DNA of 62,891 bases, the filler included, from Neolecta irregularis DAH-3 (lineage: Eukaryota): NCBI GenBank assembly GCA_001929475.1. It is 8 parts of 8 records of this genome, joined end to end, with 100 filler letters (N's around TTAATTAATTAA, not from the genome) between each part and the next. Parts side by side here need not be neighbours in the genome. Positions count along the whole stretch, not along the records: positions 44,981 to 62,891 come from LXFE01000941.1; 7 more parts are not named here. One strand, 5' to 3'. The translations under genes were made by a program, and so were the position numbers. Each line of letters starts with the position of its first letter. The stretch's first letter is position 1. Shown one piece after another: positions 5,553 through 49,390 of this stretch. The notes below the pieces were generated by a model. That model did not search any database. It was not told the DNA's origin and saw nothing but the letters and a program-made list of their open reading frames with translations.

Positions 5553-8428
5553 CTATCCAACTACTTTCAGAACCAATTCACAACCAATCTCCCCATCACT
5601 TTTCCCACAAACTCGAACTGCTACACCCGTCTTGGAACTCCACGCTAGCCGGATGACAACCAAAACCTTTTCGCCAGAAACGACCTTTCCAGCAAGTTTC
5701 AAGGTATGCGTATTCTTGTTGGTAGGTTGATCTGTTCCTTCGATCGGTTGAAGTGAAAACATGTCAATCAGAGTAGAATTGGCTTCTACAACCATAAGTC
5801 TAAATAGATTAAAAGGAAGTTACCGTGAATAGATTTCATCTCGCCTAATGCAAAAGTAGCACTTTTTTCAAATTGAAGGGACTCCCATAAATCTTTGAAT
5901 CCGCTGATATAAATCGGCACAAAGTAATCCTTGGCTTCAACATCGACATCTTCAATCTACTGTATCAAAGGAATATTCAAGTAAAACCATACCTCGTACT
6001 CATCGTCATAACCAGCTTGATCTAATTCTCCAGTAGTGGGATCAACTTCCTTGCTAGTAAACTTTAAAGAATTCGAAAAGTTCCCCATCGGAAACCCAGT
6101 TTTCGAAAAGGCGACGTATATGGTCCCAGCGATTTCAGGAGTGATTTTTGGCGCAGGAATGATGAATAGTTCTTGAAATTCCTCAGAAGGAGAGGCAACA
6201 ATACTGACGTTTTCTAAAACAGTATCTGGGATAGTGTTCCTGACGGTGTACTATATATCAGTCATGATTCCAAGAGGCGCACCTGAATGACGAGATGATC
6301 TTGAAAAACGTGTTTAACGGCACCAACAACATACTCCATTTCCCGTTCTGTCAATTCTGCGTCCAGGCTGCTCTTCAAGAGAGGCCCAAAAGATTTTAAT
6401 TCGGGGACAGAACTTAAGAGTTCGGAATACTTGATTTTTTCTTCTTCCTGTTGCTTTTTAGGTTCAGAAATTGCGGATGTAATGCGAGTCTTTGCTTTGA
6501 GACTTTCGGTCAGGGCTTCTGCTCGGGAGATGATGGGTATAGAGGATATATTGAACTCTTGGTCGAAATTTGATGAGGAGATATAGGTGACAAGTTGCGA
6601 TTCAAGCATAGGCAGAGAATAAATCCCGTCTAAAAATCAGCATCAAAAGACATGTGAAACCAACCAGAGAAAGAAAGTCCGGATTTCTCCCAAACCGCGC
6701 GATCACGAACTTCATCGTCACGATCATCGAGACATCGTTCCAAAAGTATTGCAACACGGGTTTGTAAGCCGTCTACCTTTGCGAATTTTCCAAGGGCAGA
6801 AACGGCAGCTGCTCGAACGATGCTATTTTCCAAGACGACTCTGTTATAAATATATCGAATATATCTGGAAGGATGAGGGGTAAGCGGACCCTCGACTCCA
6901 AGAAGATGAAGAACCCTGACCGCAAGGGTAGTAAATTCACAATCTTCAATGAATTCACAAAGATGGCTTAACGCTGAAAGAATCAGGACAAGATTGTAAG
7001 AGCAAAAAGATACCATCTGCTTTGACACCAGGCACAAATGAACATAAATCCATTAAACCTTCAACAACGCATTCTTTTACTTTTTCCCCTCCTTCTTCTC
7101 TGAGACAGCTAGCAAAAAAGCCGAGCATAACGTCTTTCTTCTCTGGGAATTTAATAGCCAGGCTTCGAATTGCGGAAATGACGATTATGCGAAATTCATC
7201 CGAGAGGTCAGACATGAAAGTTGCCAAAGTCTTCATGAGACGATCGACGCTACTTGATGTGCCTGTTTTCAAAAGAGTAGTAATGGCAAAGGTGGAGATG
7301 GAACGATTGGTGTCTGTGATTAAAGCCTCGAGGTCAGTGTTCAAGGGCGATAACAACGCACTCTGAGTTTGCGAAAGGGTGCTCAAAAGTCTGAGAGAGG
7401 TAAATCGGATGATATATCTAGGCGACGAGAGGAACAATTGAAGAACTATCTGTCAGAGCGCAATCTTGAGAGGAATAACGAGAAATCACGGGGGACAGTT
7501 CATCTTGAGTGGTGTTTGGTAGCCCGATCAACATTTTTGCAGCTTCGAGGTTGACCATGTCTGATTTATGTTTTAAAAATCCGATCAAAAGCTGGACCAT
7601 GGTATTTCGCATACTTCAGAGGTTACACAGTCAATCAAGACAAGACTAATACTTTGAATCATCGCGGGCGATTTTTTCTGCGCAGCGAACGAGGAATACT
7701 ACAGCCATGGGATTACGCAGGCTTTTCTCAAAGCCCTGGATAATTTTGATGACTGCGATCCTGTCATGGCAGCGCATGGAATAAAGAAGGCCGATTGCAT
7801 GGTACTGGGAGCAGAAGCTTACATTCTCTAGGCTGTTGCGTGCTGAGACTGAGAAGGAGAATATCGCTGGAGTTTTGCCGGATATTGATTCCTGGGTTTC
7901 ATTTGCCCAGCGGCGGACAACGTCTTTGGCGAAAGGGAAAAGATGGTACGAGGCAACGAGACCGGCGGAGCAGACGCTTGGTGTTTTGTCGACAATCGCA
8001 GTTTTGAGCAGCCGCTCGACAGTCTGGACGGTTGCGGGATCGACAACACGCGCCAGGGCGCGGATCGCGTTTGGGCGATAGATGGGTTCGCTGGCAGCCG
8101 CAGCGTCTTTCATGACGGAGGAGGTGACCATGATGGTGTCCTCGGCCATTTTTGCCAGGGCGCCAATAACCACATACACCATCTGGCGCAGCGCAGGGTC
8201 TTTGCTCTGGAACAGCCGCGTAATGCCGAAAAACAGCTGCGTCGCCTCGCGGGTCGGGAACCGCTCGCCGCGATCGAGCAGGTAGATCATCTTGGTCAAC
8301 AGCACCCGGCACCTGCGCGCATTGACGGGCGCCGCGTGGAAAAGCCCGCTGTCCTGCACCACTTGCAGCCGGTCGACCGCCGAGAACGGAGAGATTTCTG
8401 CATCTTCGTCGCGTTTGGAGCGTGACAT
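5553..8428 (-). CDS. SEC21: Coatomer gamma subunit (multi-exon)
   Basis: Motifs [71 protein letters not shown]; about 7 GT-AG introns join the ORFs. Confidence 0.95.
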
Positions 8429-8907
8429 TCGGGGCAATTCACACGCGACTGGGGGAGAGAAAGTGGGGAGTGGCAGTACGGCAAGTGACTTTTGCCAGGA
8501 GATGTCACGTGACATCATGGAGTCGCATTGAGCGGTCAGTCTTCCAGTTGTTGCCTTTGGTCCTTTCTCCCTCTGCAGCACTATTCTCTGTGGGAAAATA
8601 CTGGTAGGGCAGTCTATTTGGCCGGCAATGTTTTCGGCTGCCGCTACTCTCTCTGGGCCAACCCTTGTTTCTCTCTGGTGGGTCCTTTTTCCGTTCAATG
8701 CCCTTTTTCAAAATACACCCAGCAGCGGGCGGCTGTTCTACCTCACAAACTGCCCCTGTCGAGATTCGGGCGATCAAGGTGATAGGTAATAGTCCCGTGC
8801 AGATCCCTCAGTGTAAAAATAGAAGGCAAATCCAACTTTTAGTGCTAGGCTCCTTTGCCTGTATTTTTCCAACCTATCCTGCAACTTTCTCCTCCTACAA
8901 AACCTCC

Positions 8908-9171
8908 ATGGCAGATCATATTCCACTCGTAGATGCTCCCAAAGTCCCTCCATCCCCGCCTCCTGCATATCCCCACATGCCGGCCGCGCCAGCCTACTCT
9001 CCATATCCTCCAATACAACCCCAACCCGTCGAGGCGCAGCAACTCTATGCTCAAAACGCAGCAGCTCGAGAGCTTCACAGGCGATTCCTCATCGGCATCT
9101 TGGGCTTAGTGATCATGATTAGTTTCCTTGGTCTGCTGAAATATTTCATTTACGGAGACATAAACGCATGA
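8908..9171 (+). CDS. Small proline-rich single-TM protein with PPAY motif
   Basis: 87 aa ORF with PPPAY and a C-terminal hydrophobic segment FLIGILGLVIMISFLGLL. Confidence 0.55.
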   Translation: MADHIPLVDAPKVPPSPPPAYPHMPAAPAYSPYPPIQPQPVEAQQLYAQNAAARELHRRFLIGILGLVIMISFLGLLKYFIYGDINA

Positions 9172-17473: not shown

Positions 17474-17545
17474 GGGCGCGTAGCGCAATGGTAGCGCGTC
17501 AGATTTCGGTTCTGAAGGCTGTGTGTTCGACTCATACCGTGCTCG
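17474..17545 (+). tRNA. tRNA-Arg(TCG)
   Basis: 72-nt cloverleaf: acceptor GGGCGCG/CGTGCTC, anticodon stem TCAGA/TCTGA with loop TT-TCG-GT, T-loop GTTCGA, followed by T-runs. Confidence 0.9.
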
Positions 17546-21893: not shown

Positions 21894-23008
21894 CTATATT
21901 ATGCCCTTTTCCTTGATCGGCCCTCTCAATTGTCCCAGGGTGATCAAAACAGCCTCTTCAGTTCGAATAGTCCTACTACCCTGTTCAGGACACGTATTGA
22001 TCCAAAGATCAAATAGTTCTTTCGCATCTGAACCCTGTATCTCCAAAGCAGGATCATTGTCTATAGCGTATTCAATCCCTGCAAGACCCCCAAACACAAC
22101 CAACATATGTGAAAACTCTGGTATTGAAATCGACGAGATTTCATCACCACGCTCAGAAGTTCCGAGAGTAATATCATAGCCATTCTTTCATGAGAATATG
22201 AAAGCAAGGGTAGGAGGAGTTACCGTGTAAGGAGATTCCGTGAATACAGCAGATATGGAATCTGCTATGCGGACTTTATAGCCCCAATACAATCCCACTT
22301 CCTGCTTTGGTGTAGTGGAGGGAACGATTTCCCCTTCTATATATTCCCCATAATTTTTCTTAATTCGCACGGTCACTCGTGTGTTTTGGTGAATTCTTTT
22401 TCCTGGTACAAATACTCTCAAACGAAGACCGGCATCGACTAAAGTCCCATTCTTTGCGAAATCAAGGAGAGTTATTCCTTCGCGAAAGGGTAGATCGTCA
22501 TCTATCCGCAGATGATGAGGACAATCCAGCGGATTTAAAAGTCCAGCGAATTTTAAATCTCTATGCATCGGAAAGATGGATTTGCGAAGATACTGAGGAG
22601 TCTCGAGGTATTGCAATATTTTGGCTAGAAAAATGTCAGAGGCACTCAGGCCGGCATGTTTCTCCATATACGGATGTTGGTCGTCTGACTTTTTAGGAGT
22701 ATCATCATATATCACGATTTCGTCGACGTTGAAAATAGCGAGGGACCGAGCTATCTTGTTGATCAATGAAAAGGTCTCCAAGGGAGGGGTTACAGAACCA
22801 GCGAGGGCAGTTTTGAGTTCTGGGGTTTGTGAATTTGCGATTATGCTGCCAGGCAGGGCGACAGAGAGTGTATACTTTTGGCCGTGGTCTTTGAGAATGG
22901 GATTTGCAGAAGGCTTGGAGGTGTCAATGTGTCCTGGGTTATAGTGTTTTCTCTTTGGTTCAGAATGGGATGGCGGTGGTAGTGGGATACCTTTTTTTGT
23001 GGGGGCAT
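21894..23008 (-). CDS. SPOUT-family RNA methyltransferase (C9orf114/SPOUT1-like)
   Basis: TLSVALPGSII, LQYLETPQYLRK, GLLNPLD.PHH, YWGY.VR, QGSRTIRTEEA. Confidence 0.92.
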
Positions 23009-23156
23009 GGTGGTGGGAGTGGCAGGAATTTGGGGAGAGGACTGCAACAGACCCTAACTTCCTTCCATCGTCCACCACAAAAAGCGGTAGTGAAGGGATT
23101 CAATCACCGATTGCAGACTGACGGGCTAATTGATAGGAGCGACGCAGAAGGTGACG

Positions 23157-23784
23157 ATGTATGGCGATCTTGCTGCAAAATTGGTTAGCGATGCGAAGCG
23201 CATGCAACAGCTCGTGACGCTGCCGGCGTACCAGCAGGAGCTTGTGCGGGAGATCTGCCGCGAGGTGCAGCACCTAGATGAAGAGGCGAATGTACATTTG
23301 GAGGCAGCAGGTGGAAGCGATATCCGCCAGCAGAACGAGGCCGCGGCGTGTACTGTGCTCGTCCAATATCTGTGCATGCGCCGCAACAAGCGTTGTCTGC
23401 TGGCATACCATCGCGCGCGCATGGAGCGACTCGAGCAGGCGTGCTGGAGCGCTGTAGGCTGGGAGCAGACAGGCGGCGGAGGATTGTCTGCGTCAGAACA
23501 GGAATATGCGCGGCGGTACACGGAGCTGGTCGCGGGTTGTGCGGGTCGATGGACGGAGATTGATCTTGCGGGTCCACTACTGCCACCCCGGGAATTGTTT
23601 GTGGATGTGCGAGTGCTGCGGGATGCGGGGGAGATCCAGACTGAGTATGGGTGAGTCGATCGATTTTTGGTGGTGAGCCGCTGATGGACAGGGCGGTTGC
23701 ATTGACGCGCAACAGCCAGTTCTACGCGCGACACGCCGACGTCGAGCGGCTTGTACAGCAGGGTTTTCTCGCACGTGTTCCCTA
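23157..23784 (+). CDS. PSF1: GINS complex subunit Psf1
   Basis: MYGDLA.KLV, RNKRCLLAY, LLPP.ELFVDVRVL.DAGEIQTEYG; last exon VERLVQQGFL. Confidence 0.95.
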
Positions 23785-23862
23785 ACTAACCACCACTGTT
23801 TCTATTCATTGCCATATCACAGCATACACTTGCTACACTCTCCCCATACCAGACTTCCATTT

Positions 23863-24303
23863 ATGCCTTGTTCAAAGTGCGAAAACAAACTTGCCTCTCT
23901 TGCAACACCCAGGTCTTGCCTCACCCTCTTCCTCGAACCCATTTGACTCCCCCTCAGCGTAAAAAAGGCATCAGACCTCTATGGCGGTGTCGGTGCTCCC
24001 AGATCTGCTGGTCCTACTGCTCCCGAACGCAAGATTGGCGAGAACAAGATGCTCTCTAAACCTGCCAAGAAAAGGTGAAGCTACAGGCCATCTTTCAGAA
24101 CTGACCATATAGGTTCACGCCTTATGCCACAACCTGCAGCGACTGCGGATTGCGGACACATCAGGGCGGTAAGTACTGTCAGAGTACTCGCTCCTCCGTC
24201 CTCGTGAACTAATCTTGCAGAATGTGCATACAAACGCGGAGTCTGCGGGATTTGCGGAAAGAAGATCCTCGATATATCAGCATACAAGATGTCTGTCAAG
24301 TAG
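23863..24303 (+). CDS. CRIPT: Cysteine-rich PDZ-binding protein homolog (3 introns)
   Basis: Spliced product MPCSKCENKL..LATP...RKIGENKMLSK..K.RFTPY...C.DC.....GGKYCQKCAYKRGVCGICGKKILD. Confidence 0.88.
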
Positions 24304-37825: not shown

Positions 37826-38923
37826 CTATCTAAATATTAGCAAGGGAACTGACAGGCGGGTGGGCAGGTGGGCAAGATGGGTGGGTGAGACAGGAGAATG
37901 AGGCGGGCGCACAGGGTGGGAGAGGTGCACAAGGTAGGCAGGATGGGCGCGTGAGTTGGGAGGGGCGAGATGGGTGGGAGAGGCGAGATGGGTGGGAGAG
38001 GCGAGAGAGGCGTGTGAGAGGGCAAGGCGCGTGAGGCAGGCGAGGCGGGCGGGACAGGCGGGACGGGAAGGTGAGGCGCGCGGGATGGGCAGGAGAGACA
38101 GGCGAGACGGGAGAGACGGCCAGGAAGGGAGGGAGAGACAGGCGCTAGGCGAGGGAGAGACGGGCGGGAGGGGAGGGTGAGGCGGGCGGGAGAGAGTGAA
38201 TCCATAATCTTCGATCGCCAAAATGTGAGATTAGCCCTTGAAAAGACAGCTTAAGTTGATTAAGTAGGGCAGTAGCATATTCTCGTGTATCAATCTCAAT
38301 ATATTCATTTGGCGATTGCTCATTTGGTATTCATGTGATTTCATCCGCCTGGAGTTCCACGGATTCATTCCAGAGCTCACCCCAAGCTCGATTACCAACC
38401 GCAGGAATAGACCCGGCGCCAATCGCATCGAGCTACACCATTGGAAAGTGACAAAAGAGAAGAATTACCATGTACTCAGCCAATGTTGGGGACGGGCCAA
38501 AGCGCTCTTCTGGCGGGTGCAGCGGCGATAACGGGTGAAGAGGGCAGGACAGGGCTAGGAGGGCGGGCGGTAACGGGCGAGAGGGCGGGGAGATAAAGGA
38601 CTAGGAGGGGGAGGGAGGGCAGTAACTGGTGAGGTGGGCGAGGCCATAGTAGGCGAGGAGGGCAGGTGATAACGTGTGAGAGGGCGGGGCGATAACGGGC
38701 GAGGATGGAAGGCGATGACGGGTGAGGAGGGCGGGCAGTAACAGGTGAGAGCGCAGAGACGATAACGGACCAGGAGGGGGAGCAATAATGGGCGGGGTGA
38801 TAGCAGGCAAGGAGGGCAGATGATAACAGGCGATAACAGGCGAGTGTAAAAACTTTTAAAGCAAGTCCAGACAAGCAAGTCCAAGTTTGCAAGTAAAATA
38901 GCAAGTAAGTCCAAGCAAGCAAG
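37826..38923. repeat. Composite repeat region: purine-rich tract, GCGATAACGGGCGAG units, CAAGCAAGT array
   Basis: Homologous to 690-1130. Confidence 0.7.
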
Positions 38924-39023
38924 TNNNNNNNNNNNNNNNNNNNNNNNNNNNNNNNNNNNNNNNNNNNNTTAATTAATTAANNNNNNNNNNNNNNNNNNNN
39001 NNNNNNNNNNNNNNNNNNNNNNN

Positions 39024-39990
39024 NGCGCCCTCACCCGCTCCAGCTCCCGCGCCCGCTCCACCTCCGACGCCCGCTCCCGCTCCCGCTCCAGTTCCCGCGC
39101 CCACTCCAACTGCCGCGCCCGCTCCAGCGCCCTCACCAGCTCCAGTTCCCGCGCCTGCTCCAACTCCCACGCCCGCTCCAACTCCTGCGCCCACTCCAAC
39201 TGCCGCGCCAGCTCCAACTCCAGCGCCCGCTCCAGCTCCAGCTCCCGCGCCCGCTCAAACTCCTGCGCCCACTCCAACTGCCGCACCCGCTCCAGCACCC
39301 TCGTCACTCTAATTGCCTCGCACTGCAACTCCCACGCCTGCTCCAGCGCTTTCACTTGCTCCAACTCCGTCACACACTCCAACTCCCTGGCCCGCTCCAC
39401 TGCCATCACCCGCTCCAGCATCATTGCCCGCTCCAGCTCCATCTCCCGCTACAGCGCCCTTGCCAGCTCCAGCTCCATCTCCCGCTCGTCACTCTAACTG
39501 CCTCGCACTCCAACTCCCGCGCCCGCTCCAGCGCCCTCAATTGCTCCAACTCCGTCACCCACTCCAACTTCCTGGCCCGCTCCACTGCTATCACCCGCTC
39601 CAGCATCATTGCCTGCTCCAGCTCCATATCCCGCTCCAGCACCCTCGCCCACTACAGCGCCCTTGCCAGCTCCAACTCCATTGCTCACTCCAACTGCCTA
39701 GTCTGCTGCAGCGCCCTCGCCAGTTTCAGTACCCCCGCCTGCTGAGATACGCTCTCTGGCTGCAACTCCCTCGCCCATGCCCGCTGCAGCACCCTCACCT
39801 GTTGCAGAGCCTTTGTCTGCTACAACTCCCTTGCCCGCTGCAATACCCTATCCCGTTGCAGCGCCCTCTTCAGTTGCAACTCCCTCACCAACTTCAACAC
39901 CCTCGCCTGATGCGATACTATCCTGCTGCAATGCCATTCCTAGCTACAACTCGCTCATCTGCCCCAACTCACTCACCTGCTCCAACTTTG
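39024..39990 (-). repeat. Degenerate ~18-bp repeat encoding (ELERAR)n-like coiled-coil sequence with frame breaks
   Basis: CCCGCTCCA(G/A)CTC units; internal duplication of ~39300-39490 at ~39490-39680. Confidence 0.65.
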
Positions 39991-40774
39991 GTTTGAATTC
40001 CAAGGTTTCTATCTTACTCAGACATTGCAAAATTCTTACCCTTGTAGATGCCAAGTCATGAGCATATCAGAAACGGTGTCCAGCTATACTCATCAGAACC
40101 TGCCGAACCTTATCTCAACAGTCAAAACTAATGTATCTCCCTGTTACAGGATTTTTGCTAACCAGAATAGCTTAGTTGTTCAGTAATTAGGTCATTTGGT
40201 TTGTTGATGATCCCAATGTATACCGAGTCACCATTCACAAAACTGTCCTTGGTTGGCCTTGATGATGATATGAGTCAGCCAAGTTATCACCGAGGGAATA
40301 GATCCTTGCCAAATGTATGACTGCTGAAGAAGTTGCTGCTTTAATCTGATCATTCCGCCTAACTCACTATTCCATCTATGGTGCTCCATCCTCAACTCCC
40401 TCCACTAACCCTTCAGATTCTGCTATATATGGTATAACAGGCAGTGTGGTGTCACTGCCTGTTGCTTCTCCCCAGGCTCCCCCTCTGGGGCACTTTTGCT
40501 GGTATGATCTTATGAGTGCTGCAAACATCATGCTATGGAGAAGAAAGGGGAATGTAGACAGACACAAGTGATAGAAAGTATATCATATAGAAATGTTATG
40601 AATATATCAATGCTTAGAATTTGGAAACAATTACTATTTTACAATTTACTACTACAATTTGTCTTTGTAGTCTACAAAGTTTATATAGTATTATACTTGA
40701 TTGATATACTATTAGTATATCAATCAATGACTTTGGTATTGGAAAGCTCAGATCAGGAAAATGTTAGTTAAATG

Positions 40775-45316: not shown

Positions 45317-46305
45317 CTAATTTGGAAGAGGCTGATTTGCACGAGGCTGTCTGGGACGATTTGCCGGAGGTCTGCCTCTGGACGCGCCTCGTCCTCTGCC
45401 TCTACCGCGAGGAGGTAGAGGGTCAGTGCGAGGGAGCGAATCCTTTCGGGGATGAGAATCAGTGCGAGAAGGAGAATCCGTTCGAGATTGGTCTGTGCGA
45501 GGGCTTTGATCCGGGAGAGCGGAAGTATCAGCATCCTGCTTGTTATCCGCGAGGGCTTGTGATTTTGGATTTTTCAAGATTCTTGGGGTAGTTTTTGGAT
45601 GATGGACGATTGGCTTTTGGACGATATCTGAAGAATGTGGGGCACTTGTTTCTGGGATCCTTTTCCTGCCGCGGGTCTTTTTTGGGAATGGTCTGGGGTC
45701 TCTTTTTGAGATATCCGGGGGGACGCGGGCGCTCCTAGCCTTTGCGGCGATGGCTGCGGCCTTTCTCTCGAGCTGGGCCTTTTTCTGGAGGGTCAGGTAG
45801 TCGAGGAGGGGGGTGGAGTCTGGGGGCGGGGGAGGCGTGTCTTGCTGGAGCGGGGCGAGGGAGTCGAGGGAGGCGACAAAGTGGAGATAGTGGTCGTCTG
45901 GGCGGGGTTAGCGGGGGGAGGCGAGGGGAGGGACCTGTGAGGATGGTGTTCTTGCGGGCATCAGTCTTTTTCGGGGGGCGGGAGGGTTTCTGGAAGATTG
46001 CGGGCTCGGCGACGGGGCGGTACTCGGTGCCGGCCTTGTCTCTGAAGACGTGGCCGCGGAAGGCGTGGAGGAAGCTGCAGAGGAGGGCGTGGGAGGCGAA
46101 GGTGATGTAGGCGCGGGCGGGGCGCGGGTGCCTGCGGGGCCTGCGAGGATCAGGGAGAGCAGCGGGCAGCGGCGTACGCTGCGGAGCCGGGGCGGAAGTA
46201 GTAGTCCTCGACAGCGCCGGGGGCGGCGGGCAGCACGGCGGCGCAGAACACGGCCTCGGGCAGCAGCGGCGGCAGGCGGCGGACGACGGCCTTGCGGGGG
46301 GGCAT
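45317..46305 (-). CDS. UPF3: Nonsense-mediated decay factor Upf3
   Basis: MPPRKAVVRRLPP, RAYITF, F.GHVF.D..G.EY...AE.A.FQK, DAR.NTI; RG-rich tail. Confidence 0.8.
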
Positions 46306-46319
46306 CAGAGGGAGGGGTA

Positions 46320-46498
46320 GTAGGTAGTATGTAGTAGGGTCAGAGGAGTAGAGGGTAGGTCAGAGGAGTAGAGGTAGGGTCAGGAGAGGGTAGGGTCAGG
46401 AGAGGGTAGGGTCAGGAGAGGGTAGGGCAGAGGAGAGGGTAGGGCAGAGGAGAGGGTAGGGCAGAGGAGAGGGTAGAGGTTAGGGTTAGGCAGGTCAG
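46320..46498. repeat. G-rich 15-16 bp tandem array (GGGTAGGG(T)CAG(A)GGAGA) in the UPF3/SIT4 divergent intergenic region
   Basis: Directly visible; includes TTAGGGTTAGG. Confidence 0.85.
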
Positions 46499-46504
46499 AA
46501 CGAC

Positions 46505-47606
46505 ATGCCCGCACACCCCCTCGCCGACCCCGAGCGCTGGCTGGCGACGGTGCGCGAATGCCGCCCGCTGGCCGAACCGGACCTGAAGCGGCTGTGCGAG
46601 CAGGTCAAGGAGCTGCTGATGGAGGAGAGCAACATCCAGCCCGTGCGCGCGCCCGTCACCGTCTGCGGCGACATCCACGGCCAGTTCTACGACCTGCTCG
46701 AGCTGTTTGCCGTCGGCGGCGAGATGCCCGCCACAAACTACATCTTCATGGTACGCCGCTGCCCTTCGCGCTGACGCCAGGGCGACTTTGTCGACAGAGG
46801 CTACTTCTCGCTCGAGACCTTTACCCTGCTCATGTGCCTCAAGGCGCGCTACCCAGACCGCATCACCCTGCTGCGCGGCAACCACGAGTCGCGCCAGATC
46901 ACCCAGGTCTACGGCTTCTACGGTTCCGCTCTCTGCGTCCTGCCGCCCTAATCCCAGACGAGTGCCAGCAGAAATACGGCAACGCAAACGTCTGGAAGTA
47001 CTGCTGCCAGGTCTTTGACTTCCTCACCCTCGCCGCCATCATCGACGGCCGCGTCCTCTGCGTCCACGGCGGCCTCTCGCCCGAAGTCCGCACCCTCGAC
47101 CAGATCCGCGTCATCGCCCGCGCAATGGAAATCCCCCACGAGGGCGCCTTTTGCGATCTCATGTGGAGCGATCCAGAGGGTACCTGCTGCCGCTACCCCG
47201 CTCACCGCCAGACGTCGAAACATGGGCCGTCTCCCCGCGTGGCGCAGGCTGGCTGTTTGGCGACAAAGTCACCTCCGAGTTCAACCACGTCAACGATCTC
47301 TCCCTCATCGCCCGCGCCCACCAATTGGTCCAGGAGGGCTTCAAGGCATGCCCCCCCCGTCTCCCCTCATAACCGTCAGTACCACTTCAAAGACGAAAAC
47401 CTCGTCACCGTCTGGTCAGCCCCAAATTACTGCTACAGGTGCGGAAATGTAGCAAGCATCATGAAACTAGACGACAACCTCCTCCCTGAATTCAAAATAT
47501 TCAATGCAGATACCGTCCCTTGTCCAGAGCTTCAGCTGACCTAGTACTCCCAGACGATCAAAGACAGATACCCCCAAAAGGACAAAGAAGCGAATACTTT
47601 TTATAA
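46505..47606 (+). CDS. SIT4: PP6-type Ser/Thr phosphatase catalytic subunit (Sit4/Ppe1), 5 introns
   Basis: [66 protein letters not shown]-terminal YFL. Confidence 0.95.
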
Positions 47607-47794
47607 CCCTGCGACTGGCGTTTTCCATTTTCCCTTTGTTGGTGTACATATTCATGCGGAGATCAAGATAAGGGAATGACATTTATTTGCGATTTTGAAA
47701 ATTGATATTCGTTGTGCACTAGTTTGATTTGATAGTTCAGCATTTATCTAGAGACGCATTTATCCGTCATGACCAATTGTTAATCAATTACACA

Positions 47795-47869
47795 CTCTAT
47801 GCTCTATGCTCTATGCTCTATGCTCTATGCTCTATGCTCTATGCTCTATGCTCTATGCTCTATGCTCTA
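47795..47869. repeat. (CTCTATG)n 7-bp microsatellite
   Basis: About 10-11 perfect units. Confidence 0.95.
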
Positions 47870-47926
47870 TTCTCGTTCACGCTCAATGCTAATCAATATA
47901 TTCATATATCCTCTGCAACTATCCTG

Positions 47927-48790: not shown

Positions 48791-49296
48791 GTTCCACAAA
48801 ACCCAGATATACTTTTGCCGACATATTCTCCCTCTATCACTACTCAAAAAAAGATATCCTTTAAACGGCACTGATCCGTGAATATACTTTTGCGTTCAGT
48901 CGATATCGTCTGTTTTCAGGGTTCGCCGANNNNNNNNNNGAAACCCAGATATACTTTTGCCGACATATTCTCCCTCTATCACGACTCAAAAAAAGATAAG
49001 GGAACGGCACTGATCCGTGAATATACTTTTGCGTTCAGTCGATATCGTCTGTTTTCAGGGTTCGCCGATAAACAAGTCAATATTGGAAATTCAGAGAAGT
49101 GCATGTCTCATCGATGCCATACAATAAAAAAAAAGTTTCATTTCAGATAACTATCTTGATTTTTAAAAAGTCTCTGCTAGCGCTTCGTCCAGTATAAAAT
49201 AAATGTACACTGGAAAGAGCATACCTAAAAGTATAAATGCTGCGAAATAGAGAATAATACTATAATTATTACATTGAGCGTGCACAAGTTGTTTAA

Positions 49297-49390
49297 GCCG
49301 CGATGGCCGAGTGGTTTAAGGCGGCAGTCTTAAGTTGTTTAGGCAACTGCTGGGTATCGTCCCGCGTGAGTTCGAACCTCACTCGCGGCA
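49297..49390 (+). tRNA. tRNA-Leu(TAA) with ~10-nt intron
   Basis: Acceptor GCCGCGA/TCGCGGC-A, D-arm TGGCCGAGTGG, stem GCAGT/ACTGC with CT-TAA-G then intron TTGTTTAGGC, long variable arm, GTTCGAAC. Confidence 0.9.

Follow-up and report, generated by a model that had tools for sequence, protein, structure and literature searches.

A 38-nt AT-AC intron, most probably spliced by the major spliceosome, in the Neolecta irregularis gene for the phosphatase PP6/Sit4

U2-type AT-AC introns have already been documented and are very rare, with 24 of them among the 610,067 introns of five species, none fungal, in the table of Sheth et al. (2006, PMC1557818), a paper that also mentions xylanase genes of filamentous fungi as hypothesised AT-AC cases. 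The class called 'AT-AC II' is described there as AT-AC introns whose donors agree with the U2-type consensus everywhere but at +1. Human SCN4A and SCN5A contain introns of this kind (Wu & Krainer 1997, as cited in PMC1557818 and 10.1101/226894), for which the dependence on snRNPs is experimental, and the metazoan donor consensus is quoted as /ATAAGT in PMC5029451. In fission yeast, Chen et al. (bioRxiv 10.1101/226894) ascribe the removal of an AT-AC intron of S. pombe lea1 (SPBC1861.08c) to the major spliceosome; according to this preprint, the intron had been mis-annotated until cDNA gave the joint, it is confirmed by RT-PCR and backed also by RNA-seq and by spliceosome-bound intermediates, and its other signals are strong U2-type ones. 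In S. cerevisiae, a nested AT-AC splice in RPL30 is described by Gould et al. (2016, PMC5029451) as the first reported in this yeast; it is an endogenous splice found in 1-2% of transcripts, a by-product formed within another intron from a donor that resembles no consensus. The same paper cites an engineered AT-AC intron that was spliced in yeast (Parker & Siliciano 1993). In fungal annotations, AT-AC introns are rarer than CT-AC introns, the latter being probably a wrong-strand artefact (PMC7072748). Our literature search turned up nothing on AT-AC introns for either Neolecta or Pneumocystis, and the main text of the Neolecta genome paper (PMC5309816) does not contain the words 'intron', 'splice' or 'RNA-seq'.

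The intron reported here (intron 5 of the gene, positions 47510-47547) lies in a window of DNA from Neolecta irregularis DAH-3 (assembly GCA_001929475.1), where the window is the whole stretch that was analysed, 62,891 nucleotides long with filler included. It adds a well-supported case to those known, and it is very probably a genuine 38-nt AT-AC intron of the PP6 gene that is removed by the U1/U2-dependent spliceosome. As in S. pombe lea1, the host belongs to the Taphrinomycotina and is, from what is reported for its phylum, without a minor spliceosome, the intron lies within a coding region, and the remaining signals resemble those of U2-type introns. It differs from lea1 in gene and genus, in having its terminal AC closely flanked by an in-frame AG on each side, and in being backed by one assembled contig. 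With the human 'AT-AC II' introns it shares a donor that is of U2 type except at +1, but unlike the metazoan introns it measures only 38 nt, its donor /ATACCG matches the GTAC-type donors of its own genome rather than the metazoan consensus, and its dependence on snRNPs is suggested by sequence and phylum. As in the case of RPL30, an endogenous AT-AC splice takes place in an ascomycete, S. cerevisiae having no minor spliceosome and Neolecta being predicted to have none; in contrast to RPL30, the Neolecta joint makes a conserved protein and is the only form found in the contig. The U12-type AT-AC introns have the same terminal dinucleotides, with donor and branch consensus sequences from which intron 5 departs.

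The gene occupies positions 46505-47606 of the plus strand and is composed of six exons and five introns, as determined from the reading frame and from a spliced contig, the introns measuring 30, 35, 32, 34 and 38 nt from first to last. Judging from its Pfam domain and its named relatives, it is the catalytic subunit of PP6/Sit4/Ppe1, a PP2A-like phosphatase of the PPP family. Pfam PF00149 (Metallophos) matches positions 46960-47178 in exon 3 with an E value of 2.7e-13, and the translation of exon 5 (43 aa) is 63-84% identical to the 120 matches listed, many of which are named PP6/Sit4 and which include fungal SIT4, Ppe1 and PP6 proteins. No Neolecta protein containing exon 5 is found among these 120 listed matches, none of which exceeds 84% identity.

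Contigs of two public sequencing runs of one study, X1 and X2, were aligned to positions 46400-47900. X1 contains 0.97 of the sampled words, carries the organism label A, may be the source of the assembly and is not on record as RNA. X2 contains 0.60 of the sampled words, carries the organism label B, amounts to approximately 11-12 million letters in 20,248 records, and is recorded as 'DNA?', not as RNA. Record 10 of X2 (1006 nt, depth 632), referred to below as the spliced contig, matches positions 46447-47620 with 0 other letters and with all five introns missing. The features of the gene are as follows, all on the plus strand.

46505..46750 (+): exon 1, with the ATG at 46505; in frame and covered by the spliced contig
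46751..46780 (+): intron 1, 30 nt, GT-AG, donor GTACGC, branch-like CTGAC; the 30 nt are left out at 46750 in the spliced contig
46781..46922 (+): exon 2, covered by the spliced contig
46923..46957 (+): intron 2, 35 nt, GT-AG, branch-like CTAAT; the joint in the spliced contig skips 35, cut +1
46958..47179 (+): exon 3, core of the Metallophos domain (Pfam PF00149), covered by the spliced contig
47180..47211 (+): intron 3, 32 nt, GT-AG, donor GTACCT, branch-like CTCAC; the joint in the spliced contig skips 32, cut +1
47212..47345 (+): exon 4, covered by the spliced contig
47346..47379 (+): intron 4, 34 nt, GC-AG, donor GCATGC, CTRAY-like motif ATAAC; absent from the spliced contig
47380..47509 (+): exon 5, 43 codons and the first base of a Val codon, covered by the spliced contig
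47510..47547 (+): intron 5 (AT-AC), 38 nt, defined by the joint in the spliced contig; in frame, with a conserved product
47510..47515 (+): donor of intron 5, /ATACCG, a local donor of the GTACCG/GTACGC/GTACCT type with its first base G replaced by A
47536..47540 (+): branch-like CTGAC of intron 5; its A (47539) precedes the final intron base by 8 nt; same motif as in intron 1
47543..47544 (+): in-frame AG that is passed over, 5 nt past the predicted branch A; not the joint of the spliced contig
47546..47547 (+): AC that forms the 3' end of intron 5, at the joint of the spliced contig (both=0)
47548..47606 (+): exon 6 (...VPDD...YFL), with the stop TAA at 47604-47606; the spliced contig continues to 47620
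47552..47553 (+): next in-frame AG downstream, inside exon 6, unused in the spliced contig

Every intron of the gene carries a CTRAY-like motif near its 3' end, the one of intron 4 being ATAAC. For intron 4, the joint in the spliced contig was placed at 47343->47378, skipping 34 with both=2, and a shift by 2 gives the GC..AG borders. Non-GT donors are found in two of the five introns of this gene, GC in intron 4 and AT in intron 5.

Intron 5 is excised exactly at positions 47510 and 47547. In the spliced contig, position 47509 is followed directly by 47548, which skips 38 positions with AT..AC borders (both=0, side 73), and the intron removed in this way starts with ATACCG and ends with CTGAC followed by CTAGTAC. 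Across this joint, the G at 47509 and the TC at 47548-47549 are brought together and the reading frame continues as ...FNA-VPDD...YFL up to the stop codon, giving a protein of 310 aa. Across the joint, the product has an identical stretch of 15 residues in common with Saitoella complicata P0243, and its A-VPD...YFL tail matches the PP6/Sit4 orthologues that were compared. The terminal pattern was also looked for on its own, in a loose scan of the window for ATA...AC with a branch-like motif bridging open frames, which returned 60 raw candidates; the pattern alone is therefore no better than chance and was dropped as evidence. The AT-AC intron is held to be real because of the spliced contig and of the exact fit of its product to the orthologues.

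Three other joints would keep the frame, and each of them adds or removes residues within the A-VPD...YFL motif. Joining the AT donor to the AG at 47544 inserts a leucine (A-VLPDD), joining it to the AG at 47553 deletes Val-Pro (A-DDQR), and the pair GT 47522...AG 47553, which delimits 32 nt and is not used in the X2 contig, gives ADTVPY-DQR. Both GT-AG options that start from the GT at 47515 are out of frame. When set against the tails of the orthologues, the conserved C-terminal ...AVPD...(E)YFL of PP6/Sit4/Ppe1 subunits is obtained only with the AT-AC joint. These results agree with a preliminary description of this DNA, made from the sequence alone, in which the removal of 38 nt (47510-47547) was said to restore the YFL tail and an AT-AG alternative 3 nt upstream was said to be in frame; its statement that the sole GT-AG option gives the wrong frame has to be corrected, given that GT 47522...AG 47553 is in frame.

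When intron 5 is retained, the translated protein stops at 302 aa and is without YFL, and the preliminary description saw in this a possible regulatory switch that removes the C-terminal Leu. More generally, the intron could be kept for a regulated retention or a shift between AGs that yields a phosphatase whose methylated C-terminal Leu is missing or whose tail is altered, a reading that we regard as improbable. Use of the two AG acceptors would lengthen the tail by one residue or shorten it by two while keeping the frame, which would allow an escape from nonsense-mediated decay, and the YFL tail on which such control would act is conserved in the orthologues compared. However, no retained or otherwise joined form is present among the aligned contigs, which by their nature cannot show absence or reveal rare forms, and the switch is left unsupported. 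The flanking RNA is also without special structure, with the fold of 47495-47565 having an energy of -5.2 kcal/mol and a z of +1.09.

The site in relatives likewise speaks against such a role. A search with exon 5 retrieved 80 metagenome loci, of which 76 are continuous from WSAPNYC to the YFx stop, while the other four comprise two that are cut by contig ends, one with an earlier stop and one without the motif. The comparison of the orthologous site proposed in the preliminary description was in this way carried out on metagenome loci, and no intron was found at the site in any of the 80, some short contigs among them being perhaps cDNA. Many short single-ORF proteins of relatives also read through the site, and most fungi would appear, from these sequences, to have no intron there. 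Given that most relatives are without an intron at this position, any control of this kind would not be general to PP6.

It is very improbable that the AT-AC joint is an artefact, whether through a sequencing or assembly error behind the A at 47510, or because the contig arose by template switching or mis-assembly or represents a processed copy, free of introns, in the DNA of organism B. Such doubts arise since X1 is perhaps the source of the assembly, hence not independent, and since X2 is labelled 'DNA?' and organism B; a joined form in a DNA run exists as DNA. Nonetheless, a base-call error at 47510 would leave GT...AC, which is still non-canonical. Moreover, the read-built Logan contig of X1 (record 5, 1378 nt, word depth 421) matches positions 46447-47824 with 0 differences and has A at 47510. 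This excludes the G-to-A error raised in the preliminary description as far as the assembly stage is concerned, within a sample that is not independent. The A at 47510 is read from X1, as the X2 contig is without intron 5; cover of X2 is zero at 47624-47827, no X2 contig includes intron 5, and such gaps were not counted as evidence.

The joint itself is documented by X2. The spliced contig drops the other four introns at GT-AG or GC-AG borders, with 0 differences in the exons and with the conserved protein restored. Since all five introns have been cut out of it exactly, four at standard borders, we infer that it is a copy of spliced mRNA, that is, of cDNA nature. The absence of any common letter at the joint (both=0) makes a template switch of the reverse transcriptase unlikely, and a processed DNA copy in X2, if that is what the contig represents, would itself still record the 47509|47548 splice. 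The junction proposed in the preliminary description is thus found in an assembled contig, from a run labelled 'DNA?', and the support for it consists of one spliced contig from one study, of a kind that cannot reveal minor isoforms. Another X2 contig, record 11 (4739 nt), aligns with exon 1 over 112 nt (46591-46702) at 20 differences and is probably the transcript of a paralogous phosphatase of the PPP family.

With regard to the spliceosome that removes intron 5, its signals can be compared both with those of U12-type introns and with those of its neighbours. The branch consensus of U12-type introns is TCCTTAAC. The branch region of intron 5, ...CAGCTGAC, contains an ordinary CTRAY motif, CTGAC, which it has in common with intron 1 and which is 8 nt away from the 3' end, and no TCCTTAAC-like site is found 10-15 nt from that end. 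The donor is normal save for its first base, being /ATACCG where intron 1 has /GTACGC and intron 3 has /GTACCT. Among the 58 predicted GTA...AG candidate introns that bridge ORFs in the window, 12 start with GTAC and two with GTACCG. Their median length is 38 nt, the same as that of intron 5, and the distance from the branch A to the intron end is mostly 5-9 nt, a range that includes the 8 nt of intron 5. Judged against these local donors, predicted candidates included, /ATACCG is a U2-type donor except at +1, which places the intron in the 'AT-AC II' class of Sheth et al. (2006). Against the U12 donor /ATATCCTT quoted in PMC5029451, the intron 5 donor /ATACCGTC agrees at 5 of 8 places and differs at positions 4, 6 and 8.

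A phylum survey (PMC10639083) reports no convincing minor introns in Ascomycota and the loss of most or all minor snRNAs. Because neither the donor nor the branch site is U12-like and because Ascomycota are reported there to be without the minor spliceosome, intron 5 is assigned to the U2-type AT-AC introns. The ascomycete host and that survey likewise point to a dependence on the major spliceosome (U1/U2/U4/U6). The preliminary description had come to the same assignment, a rare U2-type AT-AC intron in SIT4/PP6 with a donor that departs from the U12 consensus and a CTGAC branch site, and it is upheld by the exact joint in the contig, the donor and branch comparisons and the ascomycete host. 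Removal of intron 5 by the minor spliceosome, as a U12-type AT-AC intron, is hardly credible: AT-AC ends are typical of a U12-type subclass (353 U12-type versus 24 U2-type AT-AC introns in the table of PMC1557818) and the donor shares ATA with /ATATCCTT, but this donor is highly conserved and is departed from at three places, the branch motif is not of the U12 kind, the size and layout are those of the four U2-type neighbours, the phylum is the one reported without minor introns, and an Rfam scan of the window, a small part of the genome, gave two tRNAs only.

If intron 5 is handled by the major spliceosome, the choice of its AC end could be explained in the following way. The donor and the CTGAC branch site would be recognised in the usual way, and in the second catalytic step, when the first and last intron bases would touch, an A in the first position would be tolerated together with a C in the last. 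Parker and Siliciano are said to have found in 1993 that the first and last intron bases are in contact and that an A in first place is compatible with a C in last place. Such an A-C pairing would account for the use of the AC at 47546-47547 in preference to the in-frame AGs that lie 3 nt before it and 6 nt after it. It may also be that the upstream AG (47543-47544), at 5 nt from the predicted branch A, is too close to be used, but this same spacing is present in 8 of the 58 predicted candidate introns of the window, which counts against the idea. The z of +1.09 given above for the fold of the region means that there is no RNA structure hiding the AG that is passed over. As for how a G could have become an A at 47510, a RIP-like origin was considered and rejected, since the changed base follows a G and is not in CpA/TpG. 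CpA/TpG is the typical context of RIP.

In the PP6 model of Pneumocystis jirovecii (P0026), the protein runs to ...FSA and continues with D, seven unrelated residues and a stop, without a YFL tail. The model ceases to follow the PP6 pattern at precisely the codon that the AT-AC intron interrupts in Neolecta. Its C-terminus looks like the read-through of a gene caller into an unrecognised intron that would start with A: the Ala is followed by Asp (GAY) and not by Gly (GGT), so that an intron of the same phase there would start with A. One could suppose from this, although we consider it unlikely, that the AT-AC ends of this intron are ancient and conserved among Taphrinomycotina instead of having come about by a recent accident. 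No further Pneumocystis or Neolecta PP6 is found among the 120 matches listed for P0026. If the ends were nevertheless old, the YFL tail of PP6 would have had a U2-type AT-AC intron standing guard over it for hundreds of millions of years, and such conservation would point to selection, for example through regulated variants of the tail made with the flanking in-frame AGs.

The surroundings of the gene in the window contain the following features.

45936-46139 and 46180-46305 (-): UPF3/Smg4 gene, Pfam PF03467, divergent from the PP6 gene
22188-23099 (-): SPOUT methyltransferase ORF, 97% identical to a protein of Neolecta irregularis DAH-3
17474-17545: tRNA gene (Rfam)
49297-49390: tRNA gene (Rfam), 94 nt

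A sharp GC-rich island extends over 45800-47400, with 61-74% GC compared with 29-36% just outside and approximately 42% in the window overall, a background that fits the 44% given for the Neolecta genome in PMC5309816. The island takes in the promoter that the divergent PP6 and UPF3/Smg4 genes share, together with the 5' parts of both, and the GC content drops toward each 3' end. Raised GC is also seen in the 1-kb bins 8001-9000, 23001-24000 and 38001-40000, which overlie ORFs that may have their 5' ends in them; one idea is that such islands arise from biased gene conversion at promoters. The SPOUT methyltransferase ORF has its next match at 56% identity, and Pneumocystis proteins match it at 46-53%; these values assign the window to Neolecta irregularis or to a fungus very closely related to it, within the Taphrinomycotina (Ascomycota).

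Two repeats flank the PP6 coding region. A 17-nt tandem repeat of 7.8 copies at 46346-46476 lies just upstream of the ATG, and the spliced contig has its 5' end (46447) inside this repeat; a (CTCTATG) microsatellite of 11.4 copies at 47795-47874 lies approximately 190 nt past the stop codon. Further downstream, the loose scan mentioned above picked up a 34-nt string at 48854-48887 (+) that opens with ATATCCTT, the donor consensus of U12-type introns, and has AC as its final two letters. The last 24 nt of this string recur 142 nt downstream (48996-49026, +), upstream of the tRNA gene at 49297-49390, and in an ascomycete this U12-like string is probably due to chance. The 94-nt span of that tRNA gene indicates that it probably contains an intron. 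Introns seem to be very short across the window, the five confirmed ones having 30-38 nt and the 58 predicted candidates a median of 38 nt.

The AT-AC intron of Neolecta PP6 leaves the understanding of splicing unchanged. It carries a warning for annotation, given that a gene caller limited to GT-AG cannot build this essential gene past intron 4, introns 4 (GC-AG) and 5 (AT-AC) being both unacceptable to it. For Neolecta, it adds to the picture of extremely short introns, and since its AC end is chosen with one in-frame AG 3 nt before it and a second one 6 nt after it, it offers a natural case in which to test how the first intron base pairs with the last in the choice of splice site.
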